From the NCBI GenBank assembly GCA_964626665.1, contig CAZVGK010000017.1:1-64000 (forward strand): 64,000 nucleotides of DNA, in the 5' to 3' direction. This document shows, one piece after another, positions 27,493 through 42,897 of this stretch. Below the pieces are notes generated by a model. That model saw nothing but the letters and a program-made list of their open reading frames with translations. It was not told the origin of the DNA and did not search any database. This stretch comes from an uncultured Gemmatimonadota bacterium (GTDB taxonomy: Bacteria; SM23-81; DAOVCL01). A program made the position numbers and the translations under genes. Each line of letters begins with the position of its first letter. The stretch's first letter is position 1.

Positions 27493-27551
27493 GAAGAAGA
27501 AGGATTTGAAGTATTGGAAAAGTAGTTTCCGATAATTTTATGGACATCCCC
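27493..27551 (+). mobile_element. Family A element, right end only
   Basis: AAGGATTTGAAGTATTGGAAAAGTAG...TAATTTTATGGACATCCCC matches the 3' ends of the other copies. Confidence 0.8.
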
Positions 27552-29156: not shown

Positions 29157-29185
29157 TCGTGGCCTTTGACAGATGATAGTAGATA

Positions 29186-29465
29186 GGGCGTCCATTAAAT
29201 TATAAATTGACAGGGAAAATCCTTTTTGGGGCTTCAGGCAGCGCCAAGCACGAATTGAAGCAGGAAAGCACTTCCAATAGGGCAAGCTCCGAGTGAATTT
29301 TGCAATCGAGCGGTTAGGGGACTTGGTGTAAGTGCAATAGCTCTTGCTAAGAAGCTGGGGTTTTCCCGTCCGCGGTGAGCATCTCTGTGAAGGGGGGAGG
29401 AAATAGCCAAAGAAAAATGATTTGAAGTATTGGAGATGGAGTTTTTCATAATTTTATGGAAGTCC
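29186..29465 (+). mobile_element. Family A miniature element (internally deleted RAYT-like Y1 transposase gene with terminal inverted repeats)
   Basis: GGGCGTCCATTAAATTA...TAATTTTATGGAAGTCC; remnant RQARIEA plus GVSAIALAKKLG...VSISVK. Confidence 0.8.
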
Positions 29466-29482
29466 TTCCATCTCCTTATACC

Positions 29483-34281: not shown

Positions 34282-34294
34282 GTTCAAGGGGTTA

Positions 34295-34559
34295 GGGGTC
34301 ACATCTTTATTCTCGACTTTCCGATTTTTGCCTTAAACAACGCCAAGCGTTAACGCGAGGAGGTATCTCCCAATAATGTAAGCTCAGAGTCTACACTGTT
34401 ATTGGGTTGTAAGGGAACTTGGTGTTGAGTGCAACAGCTTTTGCTAAGAGGCTGAGTTTTTCAGCCCCTGGTAAGCATCTCCGTGAAGAGGAGGAAGAAA
34501 ATAGCCAAAGAAAAAGGAAACGTTAGGAAAAGAGTTTTTTATAATTTTATGGGCGCCCC
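34295..34559 (+). mobile_element. Hybrid element: GGGGTCACATCTTTA left end plus family A body and right end
   Basis: GGGAACTTGGTGTTGAGTGCAACAGC...TAATTTTATGGGCGCCCC. Confidence 0.72.
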
Positions 34560-34705: not shown

Positions 34706-34754
34706 TCACGACAAAAATCCCGACAAAATGTCGTGATCAAAGGAACATAAAGAC

Positions 34755-35032
34755 GGGCATAAAATTATAAATTGAAGGAGAGAAATCTTTTTGGGCTTCA
34801 TGCCGTGCGAAGTATGCATTGACATGGTGAAGTCCCCCAAAATGGTGCCAGCCTGCAGTGGATTTTGCTATTGCGCGGTGAGGGAACTTGGTGTTGAGTT
34901 GCAACAGCTCTTGCTAAGAAGTTGGGGTTCCCAGCTTGCAGGGAGCATCTATGTGAAGAGAGGGGAGAAAATAGCCAAAGAAAAAGGATTTGAAGTATTA
35001 GAAAGGTAGTTTTTTCAATTTTATGGACATCC
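34755..35032 (+). mobile_element. Family A miniature element
   Basis: GGGCATAAAATTATAAATTGA...AATTTTATGGACATCC; encodes MPCEVCID joined to SPKMVPACSGFCYCAVRELG...VKRGEKIAKEKG. Confidence 0.82.
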
Positions 35033-35067
35033 GTCCCCCTTATCGTCCTAAAAGAGGAGGTGGTTAA

Positions 35068-35600: not shown

Positions 35601-35818
35601 GAGGTCAAATCTTTAAATACTAAATTAAAGGGCATCGCTTTCAGGGAACACTGAGTATCAAGCCTAAATTGCTAATTAGTGTCTGTCCGAATTCGCCATT
35701 CCCGCACGCCGTTAGCGGGAATCCATTACTGGCCTTAAGTAGATTCCGGCTTAAAGATTGCCGGAATGACAAGAAATATGGATGTTTCCGGACAGACACT
35801 AATTAAAGGTTTGACCCT
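35601..35818. mobile_element. Family C element (GAGGTCAAATCTTTAA...TTAAAGGTTTGACCCTC) with a nested MITE
   Basis: Imperfect terminal inverted repeats; related single ends at 34295 and 56370-56396. Confidence 0.65.
35679..35799. mobile_element. ~120 bp GTGTCTGTCCG MITE (copy 2, inverted)
   Basis: Perfect 11-bp terminal inverted repeats; TAATTA on both sides. Confidence 0.82.
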
Positions 35819-36575: not shown

Positions 36576-36873
36576 GGGGGCAACCCTCAGAAATAGACAT
36601 TGACCGTGATCGTATGTCTCCTCCAGTGTCTCGAAGGTGCTGTGGAAAGATTCGGCCTGCTGGTCAGGCTTTCTGCTTAAGGCCCAATCATTATCATATG
36701 AGGAGTTGCTGAGTAGGTGTAAGGATGCCCCAGCCACTTCAGTTGGGGGGAGGAACTGGGGGAACAAATGTGAGCTATGTAGCACAAAAGGTGAAAGAGC
36801 GTCTCAGTTGGGATGGCAGTTCAGGGAATTGGTTAAGAAGTGGATAAGAATCTATTATCTGAGGGCTGAACCT
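36576..36873 (+). mobile_element. Family B miniature element (degenerate)
   Basis: GGGGGCAACCCTCAGAAATAGA...ATCTATTATCTGAGGGCTGAACC; body shared with 42561-42897. Confidence 0.78.
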
Positions 36874-36942
36874 AATTCCCCTGACTTTCCTGTTTCACGT
36901 CTTTCGTCTTGTTAACTAACCTCATAGAAATATTCTCAAATC

Positions 36943-38673
36943 ATGGAACGAAACAACAAACCAATGCTTCCAAAAGAGCTTAGGTGTCCAAATTGTGGAG
37001 TTGAATTGGAATTGGAACACCGGGAAAGGGTAGAAAGAAGATTTGTTTGCCCGTCTTGTCAAAGTGAAATTGATTTGAGAGAAGAATTATTAGAAGAAGA
37101 AACTGATATCCGTCGTCAACCGGACGTTTTTACTCAGTTACAAAAAGCAATCTCTTCTATATTTTTGTCAGTCCAACCGTTAGAAAGGAAAATCCTCATC
37201 ACATTAGCAGGTATAGTGATTTATAGGTTAGGGTTCTATATCCCTGCACCAGGAATAAATACAGGTTTATTTAACGATTTTTTCTATAATACTACTAGCG
37301 CTTTATTGACCCATTCGATTTTCTCCTTAGGAATTAGGCCGTATATAATTGCCTCTATTTTGGTCATTCCGTTAGGCGGGGTTATCCCATGCCTAAAACG
37401 CCTTCGTGACGGGCCTGTTGAACAGCGCTATCAATTCGATATGATAGTTTATATTGCCACTATCATCATAAGTGTACTTCAAGCCGAGAGAGCAGCGGAG
37501 GTTCTGAGTAGCATAGATATCCTCGGCCGCCCTCTTATAAATTCTGGGTGGGGTTCCCACCTGATATATGTTCTTTCCCTAACCTCAAGCACAATGCTAT
37601 TGGTGTGGATTGCAGATCAAATCACTAAAAGAGGCATCGTGAATGGCGTAGTGCTTTTTTTCCTAATCGATATTCTTGCTCAAGTGATACCTTCAATTAT
37701 AAGGATTATAAGACGATTGAGCGTACCTACTGAAGGGGTTGATCCACTAATGAAAGGCATATTGTTACTTATAGTATATATCGCATTGATAGGGTTTTCG
37801 ATCGTCATAGTAAAGGCCAAAAGAAACATTCCACTCAAGCGGATCAGTCGGAGAGTAAAAAATGAAAAAAGCAGGGATACCGCACTTCCTATTCGGATAA
37901 ACAAAGTTGGAATCTTCCCCATTGAAATTGGGCAGAAGATCTTGTTTATACCAACTTTCTTAATCATTGCCTTCCCTAAAGGCATTTCCCCAGGATGGCA
38001 GGGCAACTTGTTAGATCCTAAGAATTGGCCTTACTGGCTGGGCTATGGAATTTCAATAAGTTTGTTAACTTATCTGTATTCTGTAATGAGCTATGATTCA
38101 AAAGGATTAGCAAATAAAATTGAGAGATATAGGTTTAAGATTGTTGAGGGAGATTTAATTGGAGATGTAGCTAAGTATCTTCATAAAATAGTAGAAACGA
38201 CTATTATACCGGGTGCCATCTTTCTATGTGGCATTGCTATAATTCCGTTTGTAATAAGTGTTTGGTTTGATGTAGGTTTAAACAGTTTTTTGGGGTATTT
38301 TCAACTTTTTGTTATTGCTTCCTGTATCGACATTTACCGCCAATTTCGATGGGATTTTGAAATAACTAAGGGAGTTAAAAACAACAAAAACTTGGGAAAT
38401 GTCGAATGGGTCCCTGTATTCACTGGACAAACGGTTATTGAAGGTGAAATGGTGCGGGAAATCCTTTATGAGTCTGGGATCGGATCATTTATATCCTCAA
38501 ATCAAGTGATTAGTGCATTAGGTACCCTCGCGTTCTGGGGAACCAGGCATCCTACTTATCCAACTCTCAAAAGCTATCAAAGGTTATTGGGACAAGAGCT
38601 AATGGAAGTCTTAGTTCCTTTGAATCGTGTGGAAGAAGCTGAGGAAATTTTAAAATCTAGGGGAATAGTTTAA
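36943..38673 (+). CDS. Divergent SecY homolog fused to an N-terminal Zn ribbon and a C-terminal DUF2007-like domain
   Basis: CPNC/CPSC; KILITL...YRLG..IP.PGIN, SIFSLGI.PYI.ASI, VWIADQITKRGIVNG, LPIRIN..GIFP; C-terminal VF......E.EM...L...GI...EVLVP....EEA.EIL. Confidence 0.8.
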   Translation: MERNNKPMLPKELRCPNCGVELELEHRERVERRFVCPSCQSEIDLREELLEEETDIRRQPDVFTQLQKAISSIFLSVQPLERKILITLAGIVIYRLGFYIPAPGINTGLFNDFFYNTTSALLTHSIFSLGIRPYIIASILVIPLGGVIPCLKRLRDGPVEQRYQFDMIVYIATIIISVLQAERAAEVLSSIDILGRPLINSGWGSHLIYVLSLTSSTMLLVWIADQITKRGIVNGVVLFFLIDILAQVIPSIIRIIRRLSVPTEGVDPLMKGILLLIVYIALIGFSIVIVKAKRNIPLKRISRRVKNEKSRDTALPIRINKVGIFPIEIGQKILFIPTFLIIAFPKGISPGWQGNLLDPKNWPYWLGYGISISLLTYLYSVMSYDSKGLANKIERYRFKIVEGDLIGDVAKYLHKIVETTIIPGAIFLCGIAIIPFVISVWFDVGLNSFLGYFQLFVIASCIDIYRQFRWDFEITKGVKNNKNLGNVEWVPVFTGQTVIEGEMVREILYESGIGSFISSNQVISALGTLAFWGTRHPTYPTLKSYQRLLGQELMEVLVPLNRVEEAEEILKSRGIV

Positions 38674-38686
38674 ATATAAAGACATC

Positions 38687-38892
38687 GGGGTCATTAAATA
38701 CCAATTGATAATGGAAATCTCAATGCACAATGAGCCAATTCGATGTGTGTGCAACAGCAGCTTTTGCTAAGAAACTGAGGCTTCCCCAGTCTGCGGTGAG
38801 CATTTCTGTGAAGAGGAGGGAGAGAATAGTCAAAGAAAAAGGATTTTAAAGTGTTGGAAAAGTAGTTTTTTTACAATTTCATGGACGTCCCC
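38687..38892 (+). mobile_element. GGGGTCA left end plus family A 3' half and right end
   Basis: GTGCAACAGC...GCTAAGAA...CAATTTCATGGACGTCCCC. Confidence 0.75.
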
Positions 38893-38971
38893 GTCCCCCT
38901 TCTTTTTCCCTTGCCCAGCCCCATATCAAGAGTGGAGTTGCATTAGCTGGAATACCAAGAGGTCAAATCAG

Positions 38972-40549: not shown

Positions 40550-40591
40550 ACTCGCGCCCCGTTAAGCCGCCGCAGGTTTGGATAAGGGAGA

Positions 40592-40873
40592 GGGGCATAA
40601 AATTATAAATTGACAGGAGGGGGCCACCTTTTTCTTTATGCCATGCAAAACATGCATTGACGTGGTGAAGCATCCCCAAATGGTGCCAGCCTGCAGTGGA
40701 TTTTGCTATTGTGCTGTGAGGGACTTGGTGTGAGTGCAACAGCTCTTGCTGAGAAGCAAAGGCTTTCCCAGCCTCGGATAAGCATCTCTGTGAAGAAGGA
40801 GAGAAAATGGCCGAAGGAAAAGGATTTGAAGTATTGGGAAAGTAGTTTTTTATAATTCTATGGATGACGTCCC
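40592..40873 (+). mobile_element. Family A miniature element
   Basis: GGGGCATAAAATTATAAATTGACAGG...TAATTCTATGGATGACGTCCC; encodes MPCKTCID plus VPACSGFCYCAVR. Confidence 0.82.
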
Positions 40874-41050: not shown

Positions 41051-42323
41051 CCTGGTGTCCTGTAAGAGCTTGAAAGGTCAACCTATCCCAACCTGATAGG
41101 TGGCCAATTCCTCCATAAACCAGATATGGTCTGTTATCTCCGCTGCCATTGCTGGACTACGGTGTTGATAACTACCAGATTCATCCTTTATCCTGAGGCT
41201 CCTGTGATCCCAACAGAAGTTGTAATAGCTAACAGAGAGCCAACTCTGGTTCACCCCGTTAGGTATGAAATTATCTAACGGGGTGAATATGATCAGCAAC
41301 CTTCTTTGAAAACTCATAGGTCTTCCGAGCCTTTCTGGCATTGAGATGCCGATCAGTGCCATTATAGCGTTCAATGAAAGCAACATTGACCTTCTTGGAG
41401 ACAGTTGACTCCTGCAGTGCCTGCTGAAGGGCCTCTCGGGTGCCAAAGACTAAACGAATCTCTACCTTTACTACTCTACCTCTCTCTCGCCTCTTACACA
41501 CGGTGGCAAAGAGAAGATCAGGAGGAGCCACCTTGTAAGGCTTCTTAGGCCGTCCAGGCTTTCCGGTAGGCTCTGGGCTTACCTCTTTTCCATAGGTTTC
41601 CAGGATGCATTTAGGGTAAAGCCCGTACTCATCGGCTGTCATGAGAGCTGGAGGCTGGCCACCATTAACCCGTAAAGAGAAGTCCTTGACCAATTTCCTT
41701 GTGTTCTCCTGGGTCCTTTTGCCCGGAACCAGAGAAACAACCAGCTTCTCTTTGCTGGCCAAGGCTACATGATCCCATTGATCGCCCTTATTGCCCTGAG
41801 CCTTCTCCTGTTCACTGAGATGTTTCTCTTTTTTTCCCCACAAAACTCCATTTCTCATCAAACTGGACTTCGTCTATAGCCAGATCCCGCACCAACTCAT
41901 CATGTAGGGCCTTGGCATGAGGGCCTGCTATCCTGTGTAGCCGAGAAACAGTATCTTTGGAAACCTCTACTAAACGACCTGTCTTGCGGATGCCACAATC
42001 CTCACCTAAGTGCTCCAGGATGCTGATGGCCTTTTCCAAAGGGAGACGACTTCCTGAAAGGGCAGTGTGGCTCCGTTCAGAGAACCGTTTGCCACAGGTT
42101 TTACACTGAAGCAAGCGAATGGGATTATTCTTTTCATATGTCTGTTGAACCATGATATTTCCATACCCTCTTTTTCCGTAATCTGAGCAGCCAGGATTAA
42201 TACAGCAAAATTCACTTATGTCTTTCATACTGAGCCTCCTGGTATATAGTAAGTCTTTCTAAAACTACATCTTAACTATACATCAGAAGCTCTAATCTTG
42301 TCAAGCCCAATTATGACACCAGG
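41051..42323 (-). mobile_element. IS1-family insertion sequence with disrupted transposase
   Basis: Ends CCTGGTGTC/GACACCAGG; InsA-like CxNxxC..CxxC + HTH (41812-42228), DE.WSFVGKK, TAD, ERYNGTDR, YYNF..H.SL, SPAMAA..TDH.W. Confidence 0.85.
41252..41285. mobile_element. 34-bp palindromic insertion within the IS transposase
   Basis: CACCCCGTTAG...CTAACGGGGTG; removal rejoins KKVADH to QSWLSVSYYNF in frame. Confidence 0.85.
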
Positions 42324-42347: not shown

Positions 42348-42560
42348 CTATGGTTGGCTTAAGATAAGGGGGCCATTGGTGGTGATGGCAATTGTGTTTT
42401 CAAAGTGGGCAGAGAGGCTGCTATCAGCGGTTACCGCGGTCCACCCATCGGAGAGAAGCTCCGCCCTCCAGGTGCCCATATTTACCATTGGCTCCAAGGC
42501 CAAAACCATACCGACCTTGAGAAAAGGCCCGCGATGGGGGGGACCATAGTTGGGTAAGTG
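42348..42560 (-). pseudogene. map: 3' fragment of methionine aminopeptidase
   Basis: Manual translation HLPNYGPPHRGPFLKVGMVLALEPMVN...DGWTAVTADSSLSAHFENTIAIT..GPLILS. Confidence 0.88.
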
Positions 42561-42897
42561 GAGGTCAACCCTCAGAAAATAGATATTGACATTCTTGGGT
42601 GCCCTATTATTCTGGTAGTGGGCAAGCCGTTATGGTTTGTTGGGATCTTCATTGTCCCTGCAGGATACACACTTATGGTAAGGCCTTTGCGGCTGGAGTG
42701 GCCTGGAGCGCTCTATCACCTTACAGGGTGAGGAAACCAAGGGCAGGTGATCTTTGGCAATATTGGAATTTGGAGGGATTGTGGGAACAAATGTGAGCTA
42801 TGTAGCGCAAAAGGTGAAAGAGCACCTCAATTGGGATGGCCAGTTCAGGGAGTCGTGTGAGAGGGCCGAAAAAATCTATTTTCTGAGGGTTGACCCC
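42561..42897 (+). mobile_element. Family B miniature element (internally deleted RAYT-like Y1 transposase gene)
   Basis: Perfect 22-bp inverted repeats GGTCAACCCTCAGAAAATAGAT; internal MVRPLRLEWPGALYHLTG plus a C-terminal HTH-like remnant. Confidence 0.85.

Follow-up and report, generated by a model that had tools for sequence, protein, structure and literature searches.

Family A, a set of short repeats in a 64,000-nucleotide stretch of contig CAZVGK010000017.1 from an uncultured Gemmatimonadota bacterium (the window), very probably consists of fossil, non-autonomous (MITE-like) derivatives of a transposable element of about 1.09 kb of the TIRYT/TIRtron type. The repeats keep both ends of the parent element, have lost its catalytic part and occur in several copies with one junction. 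An earlier note on this DNA had proposed that the coding remnants inside them derive from the two extremities of a Y1 transposase gene. Tblastn, Pfam and fold comparison all bear this out: of a Y1 (PF01797) gene with a DnaA-domain-IV-like HTH, the remnants represent the initial ~9 codons and the final ~60.

The window copy that begins at 34750 is the one singled out by the earlier note (Table 1). It carries TTGAAG (34772–34777) inward of its left repeat, and an open frame (34791–35009; ...MVKSPKMVPACSGFCYCAVRELG...VKRGEKIAKEKGFEVLER) in which the start remnant is joined in frame to the last ~60 codons of the HTH. The HTH remnant was mapped by tblastn of four parents (L029, L042, L072 and L082) against the genome, and the 72-codon ORF at 34791–35009 crosses the middle of the HTH out of frame. 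Outside the right repeat, TCCCCC (to 35039) is a partial duplication of the terminus. The remnants have cysteine where the parents have arginine or tryptophan, which points to an ancestral start MPR(K/Q)ARID. Changes of Arg to Cys and Trp to Cys (CGC to TGC type) are common to 34800–34870 and 40637–40710 at four remnant places. These cysteine changes of the two closest copies were inherited from a common decayed ancestor copy.

Table 1. Positions of family A copies, parts of the copy at 34750 and decayed long-form pieces. Positions without a contig name are in the window.
Feature	Position	Strand	Remarks
Family A copy, complete but decayed mini-element	34750..35039	+	collinear across the deletion junction with four other copies
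Left terminal inverted repeat AAGACGGGCATAAAATTATAA	34750..34770	+	4 mismatches to GGGACGTCCATAAAATTATAA
Start-codon remnant MPCEVCID	34800..34823	+	equals parent residues 1–8 (MPRKARID)
C-terminal HTH remnant, then stop codon	34830..35009	+	parent residues ~277–334, two compensating frame slips
Right terminal inverted repeat TTCAATTTTATGGACATCCG	35013..35033	+
Family A copy, same junction, RQARIEAGKH...	29185..29469	+	ends 29185–29205 and 29446–29466
Family A copy, same junction, MPCKTCID...ACSGFCYCAVRDL	40588..40873	+	of all copies the nearest to that at 34750 (82% identity, BLASTN)
Family A copy, same junction, degenerate left end	34290..34559	+	right end 34539–34559; left boundary approximate
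Family A copy, larger internal deletion, degenerate left end	about 38690..38901	+	right end 38871–38891, then CCCCGTCCCCC
5'-truncated family A copy: last HTH-remnant codons and right end	27494..27550	+
Family A copy	C5:13728–13977		BLASTN
Family A copy	C11:53328–53525		BLASTN
Family A copy	C1:7143–7236		BLASTN
Family A copy	C6:72608–72667		BLASTN
Family A copy	C6:73671–73766	minus	BLASTN
Family A copy	C2:83016–83054	minus	BLASTN
Decayed pieces of the long form	C1:163702–164209; C6:58–135; C6:1179–1256		tblastn of parents

Because the genome itself yielded no full-length match, we searched the species-representative genome collection with the 19-base core of the terminal repeat, which has exact matches in at least 127 stretches from other genomes. 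The 80 titled records among the matches listed are mostly labelled Thermodesulfobacteriota or Deltaproteobacteria and their orders, other labels being NC10 (one), Zixibacteriota (three) and Nitrospirota (two). Loci among the matches listed contain 35 distinct plus-then-minus pairs of ends (21-mer, at most 4 mismatches), 24 of which are 66–310 bp long, 3 are 474–979 bp and 8 are 1089–1150 bp. All eight pairs of the longest class enclose a gene for a protein of about 335 residues. The expectation of the earlier note that full-length parents would have GGGACGTCCATAAAATTA-type inverted ends was thus confirmed: both repeats are found at eight of nine full-length genes, and the ninth (L018) has the upstream repeat and no recognisable repeat after its stop codon. 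One gene is frameshifted (L043) and another is interrupted by N (L049). A parent of ~1.09 kb consists of a 21–28-bp repeat, (G)GGGACGTCCATAAAATTATAA-RTTTCT, a TTGACA box, a gene of about 335 codons and, directly after the stop codon, an inverted copy of the repeat; at L029, the inverted repeat is perfect over 21 bp.

The parent protein starts MPR(K/R/H/Q)AR(I/L)D and ends ...ARSxFCYWAVRELG...SQPAVSxxVKRGExI.... It comprises a RAYT-like Y1/HUH nuclease domain followed by a linker and an HTH that resembles the DnaA DNA-binding domain. Y1_Tnp (PF01797) scored above cut-off in all three parents scanned, and the best NCBIfam family, below its cut-off, was REP-associated tyrosine transposase. In the same number of parents the best C-terminal match was Bac_DnaA_C (PF08299; E = 9.5e-5 to 0.036), which is below the Pfam cut-off, so that the C-terminal likeness rests on the fold. 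Seven intact ORFs of 334–340 aa could be aligned (56–62% identical to the first), and His-60 and His-62 of the HUH motif as well as the catalytic Tyr-119, the last within RYIHLNP, are invariant in all seven. The AlphaFold model built from this alignment has a mean pLDDT of 74.6 and a disordered linker at residues 187–230. Its top Foldseek match was the E. coli RAYT on its REP hairpin (4er8_A; TM 0.72, normalised to the target), and the transposases of ISDra2 and IS608 came next among the solved structures. The C-terminal part aligned with the DNA-binding domain of box-bound DnaA (3pvp_B) with a TM of 0.71 and an rmsd of 1.8 over 76 columns. When compared with solved structures by sequence, the profile of the parents gave a weak match to domain IV of DnaA (2z4r, E = 0.019), and a single parent sequence gave nothing at E up to 1.

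The inverted ends occur beyond chance. When at most 5 mismatches are allowed, the genome has 36 sites for the 21-mer end and 6 for the same pattern reversed. In four complete foreign genomes, the 19-mer with no more than 2 mismatches has 39 sites (4, 7, 9 and 19) and the control has 0. The 130 distinct exact-core sites among the matches listed define the terminus: G occupies the two positions just outside the 19-mer at 122 and 125 sites and the position after them at 84, information content drops to roughly zero immediately beyond this G-run, and on the inner side of the repeat RTTTCT is moderately conserved. At C6:73671 in G000, homology between same-genus genomes stops exactly at the outer G-run. 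Just outside many ends the terminus is partly repeated, as CGTCCCC or as the G-run plus 6–8 bases; examples are 35030–35039 and 38885–38901 in the window and L049, L072, L082, L132 and L134. Such partial repeats could be footprints of nicking or of insertion beside an older end.

Mini-elements keep parent residues 1–9 and ~276–335. About 266 codons (~10–275) are gone, which removes the HUH motif and the catalytic tyrosine and accounts for the size gap of ~800 bp between 1090 and about 285 bp. The junction lies between ...ID(A/V)PG of the start and ...(A/S/G)(P/G)GK before the HTH. Since L029 reads (V/A)PG on both sides, the deletion likely occurred between short similar stretches. In a MAFFT alignment of copies, a step proposed earlier as a means of dating the deletion, identity between copies is 58–76%. 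Five of them, at 29170, 34285, 34740 and 40575 in the window and on C5, run collinearly through the junction, and the 38690 and C11 copies have larger deletions. The earlier note had seen the junction in two copies and suggested that the mini-element itself spread. The sharing holds and the number was too low, because five copies in this genome and orthologues in two same-genus genomes (G001 and G002) have it; one junction common to five copies indicates that the mini-element itself multiplied. L045, alone among foreign loci in having this junction, was considered as a sign of spread beyond the genus and rejected, as it is the same DNA as G001:C102 and hence no independent evidence; spread of the mini-element is seen within the genus only.

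Family A occupies 12 distinct places in the genome (BLASTN with three window copies as queries): six on C17, the window contig, two on C6 and one each on C5, C11, C1 and C2. The six window copies span 13.4 kb and all lie on the plus strand; the one at 27494 begins 20 bases past the stop codon of a methylase gene. Every family A copy of the genome carries frameshifts or stops, and searches that included tblastn of the parents found no intact parent gene in the assembly. Together with the finding that only decayed pieces of the long form are left, this makes family A a fossil in this genome, although an intact parent could lie unassembled, given an assembly in 63 contigs. G002 has an orthologue of the copy that lies upstream of hicB; this orthologue is 73% identical, against 88% for the adjoining hicB. 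The C5 copy is orthologous in G001. No empty sites were found in the two same-genus genomes, in which loci were filled orthologously or rearranged; six G001 loci compared with G000 were rearranged, not empty. The same-genus comparison gave no orthologue of the C11 locus, and a 14.5-kb island query against 30 relatives showed no synteny. It is thus the number of copies, together with their common junction, that suggests mobility of the mini-element. Some of these copies could reflect local cassette rearrangement, given that 6 of the 12 places are in one 13.4-kb island in one orientation.

In the history that we favour, one internal deletion would have taken codons ~10–275 and left the frame open, giving a ~285-bp element with both ends and no catalytic residues that was then presumably copied to several places. 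A full-length relative recognising the ends may have copied the minis in trans. Its HTH could read the duplex repeat and its Y1 domain could cut at the G-run terminus, and the position of the repeat beside TTGACA might also let the protein control its own promoter; each of these four steps has, in our judgement, roughly an even chance of being right. The ends may also act as a pair, with short elements folding into a single long hairpin as single strands. Predicted foldings are consistent with this: single ends of L029 fold like shuffles on either strand (z = 0.01 to 0.57), and elements of 70–73 nt each form a single long hairpin (-18 and -17.5 kcal/mol; z = -7.3 and -7.4). In the subfamily of L033, L049, L072, L082 and L043, one position consistently distinguishes the upstream repeat from the downstream one, which speaks against strict pairing of the two ends and is easier to reconcile with a protein that recognises each repeat.

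The earlier note had also taken these elements for a distinct HUH class. This cannot be upheld, as the class is already in print and the present family is a well-defined addition to it, as far as the published main texts describe it. The name TIRYT/TIRtron was introduced for RAYT-like tyrosine transposase genes that lie between terminal inverted repeats (Di Nocera, De Gregorio, Rocco 2013, BMC Genomics 14:522, PMC3733652); according to the main text, the repeats have GGGG[AT][CG]A[CG] (GGGGWSAS) in the majority and also occur as single, dimeric or grouped copies elsewhere in the genome. The text of a later classification equates TIRYT with TnpAREP subclass 2.1, to which it assigns 20 of the 26 TIRYT examples. 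Proteins of this subclass have C-termini similar to Bac_DnaA_C, HTH_23 or HTH_28, their role being left open by the authors (Quentin, Siguier, Chandler, Fichant 2018, BMC Genomics 19:475, PMC6006769). A preprint on picocyanobacteria repeats the classification under the name RAYT group 1 (10.1101/2020.03.09.984088). Among the titles and abstracts searched, none deals with TIRYT-type elements apart from these three sources. The main text of PMC3733652 contains no Desulfo-, Geobacter- or Syntropho- genomes and no gene-derived deletion minis; its Figure 9 and Additional file 5 could list relatives. Likewise, the family A repeat sequence is absent from that main text and, as are these host lineages and deletion minis, from the text of PMC6006769, whose supplements could list relatives.

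The family shares with TIRYT/TIRtron elements, as their main text presents them, a RAYT-like gene between terminal inverted repeats instead of REP hairpins, repeats that begin with a G-run, and repeats that are also single, paired or grouped elsewhere in the genome. It differs in its terminus, GGGGACGT, which fits GGGG[AT][CG]A[CG] at six of eight positions. As with TnpAREP subclass 2.1 in its published text, and 2.1.2 in particular, the Y1 protein is long, has a C-terminal DnaA_C/HTH-like domain and has no REP nearby, but the Bac_DnaA_C match of the parents is below the Pfam cut-off and the likeness is by fold. The RAYT/REPIN or REPtron system (E. coli TnpAREP, PDB 4er8) provides the best structural match to the catalytic domain and similarly combines one or few gene copies with many short non-coding partners. 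The shortest partners of our family (66–76 bp) are single long hairpins, like REP doublets; in contrast, the ends are 21–28-bp inverted repeats that form no hairpin by themselves, a GTAG tag is lacking and the protein has an extra HTH domain. IS200/IS605 elements (IS608 and ISDra2) have the same Y1/HUH fold and also lack a target-site duplication, whereas the parents have true terminal inverted repeats, no subterminal hairpins at single ends and a protein about 200 residues longer. As far as these publications tell, TIRYT elements have been catalogued twice and never studied biochemically; at issue are how a Y1 enzyme, of a type that ordinarily recognises hairpins of single-stranded DNA, handles plain inverted repeats and what the DnaA-like domain does. 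The present family offers a clean test case, with at least 127 stretches that have an identical 19-base core, seven aligned proteins of which the others are down to 56–62% identity with the first, a terminus that is sharp at the G-run, and full-length, mini and hairpin-sized partners available.

Other readings of the copies were weighed against a fossil TIRYT-derived family. They have the size, inverted ends, internal-deletion origin and intergenic location of classical DDE-derived MITEs, and might be ordinary MITEs of that type, or copies of parts of a non-mobile gene, with only a superficial likeness to the ends of a Y1 gene. However, no target-site duplication was found at 31 foreign pairs and three window copies, the family A parent enzyme is Y1/HUH in all eight full-length elements (~1.09–1.15 kb), and the sole DDE relic nearby (IS1-like, 41271–42228, minus strand) is unrelated to the ends. 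These results contradict the DDE or non-mobile reading, which the earlier note had named as one that would refute its own and which we regard as scarcely credible. Internally deleted derivatives of other transposons make repressors, and the in-frame fusion of start and HTH (~68 codons) might likewise be a present or past gene whose product damps transposition by occupying the ends. Of the copies, the two best preserved have an in-frame junction, which by chance would happen one time in three, and TTGA(C)A and a start codon are kept at the left end. The protein collection holds 111 short HTH-matching proteins, but most are plain N-terminal truncations, often on short contigs; the 111 also include other start-to-HTH fusions with different junctions (of the type MPRKAR joined to SLLCYW, in five proteins; P0024), although predicted ORFs are in frame by construction. 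Moreover, no copy in this genome is free of frameshifts or stops, the 72-codon ORF loses the frame in mid-HTH, and a search with it matched only itself, its 43-aa piece and one read-through fragment. A damper gene is therefore very improbable, and the fusion is better read as a remnant of the deleted transposase gene.

The surroundings of the window copies raise a different possibility. All six lie in an 18-kb island of lower G+C (24.7–43.1 kb) between pcrB and carD, with genes for an R.HinP1I-like nuclease and its methylase, DUF4258, HicB/HicA, AbiEi, a SecY paralogue and BrnT, together with an IS1 relic and an integrase relic; Rfam gave no match in the island. The end sites might be junctions or control modules of toxin-antitoxin and defence cassettes, with the copies persisting or moving as boundaries, which we consider unlikely. 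A related and similarly doubtful proposal makes them, in addition to transposon ends, joints of a cassette system in which the Y1/HUH-plus-HTH enzyme inserts, excises or swaps segments; if true, such a system would parallel the cassette arrays of integrons but work with a single-strand nuclease. Behind the idea of joints are the site arrays between toxin-antitoxin cassettes in several lineages, the six co-oriented copies, the cassette differences and the one exact homology break. The six copies punctuate the island on the gene strand, and foreign genomes have runs of 3–6 co-oriented single sites between HepT/MNT, PIN/MazE, HicB and MazF cassettes. G000 and G002 arrange their cassettes differently next to orthologous copies, and whole cassettes differ beside sites at C40 and C6 between same-genus genomes. 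However, dead repeats are expected to accumulate in dispensable islands, the interiors beside single sites are unrelated low-complexity sequence, and no cassette was seen to have moved from one site to another. Lagging-strand targeting would be expected to give a strand bias; orientation against local GC skew was mixed at independent loci (4 agree, 3 disagree and 1 is flat), and four complete foreign genomes had only 4–19 sites each. For control modules, the repeat contains TATAAT reading outward, as read from the sequence, but the ends of family A were not flagged in a promoter scan, and its overall count of promoter-like sites, 35, was no higher than in shuffles (28.2, sd 4.3); a promoter reading of the ends was therefore rejected. 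The co-oriented sites may simply be debris collecting in dispensable DNA. For annotation, neither the six repeats nor the 72-codon ORF at 34791–35009 nor the family at 42560–42890 should count as genes; they are what is left of transposons in a variable island.

Some features of the sites and of the island were recorded in their own right. At L057/L058, L067 and L077/L080, runs of 3–6 sites in one orientation are spaced 0.1–2 kb apart; their G-run often abuts the next start codon, and their inner sides are short-tandem-repeat-like. The SecY-family protein of the island (36943–38670; 576 residues) has an N-terminal zinc-ribbon-like segment and is encoded away from ribosomal-protein operons.

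The window also contains a second mini family that arose by start-to-end deletion of a different TIRYT-type gene, at 42560–42890, with a partial copy at about 36640–36900; the piece common to both is 36749–36817/42772–42840. The copy at 42560–42890 has the left end GGAGGTCAACCCTCAGAAAATAGAT followed by ATTGACA, the start remnant MVRPLRLEWPGALYHLTG and the C-terminal remnant ...VSYVAQKVKEHLNWDG...KIYFLRVDP, then the inverted end. The terminus of this family, GGGGTCAA, fits GGGG[AT][CG]A[CG] at seven of eight positions. An intact relative is encoded at C58:3349–4350 (minus strand), where both Y1_Tnp and Bac_DnaA_C are above cut-off. It was considered as the family A parent and rejected: the architecture is the same, but the protein starts MTRPLRIE and belongs to the second family, and over ~290 aligned residues it is 28–37% identical to the family A parents. 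A third family at G000 C40:21190–21460 has a mini-element of ~215 bp with inverted ends GGGGACACTTCC..., of which GGGGACAC fits GGGGWSAS at all eight positions; the matching locus in G001 (L162:1890–3260) has a family A mini and a 300-codon gene.

Non-coding elements with a perfect 21-mer end are present at C46:11989, C47:3218, C5:45255, C59:602 and C6:72644. Another family with a non-coding interior and the same terminal 21-mer is found at C59:596–940, C22:12689–13016, C47:3043–3248, C11:52952–53213 and C6:70237–70406. Several of its copies have the 21-mer free of mismatches, which suggests that elements with these ends may have been active here later than family A. A repeat of ~134 bp at 35672–35805 in the window has at least eight genome copies at 87–92% identity (C25, two on C26, C6, C15, C7 and C17:8363), gave no Rfam match and is also present in G002 and G008. 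Finally, a repeat of ~170 bp, represented by G000 C5:12811–12983 (L148:412–584), occurs in dozens of copies at 84–94% identity in G001 and G002.
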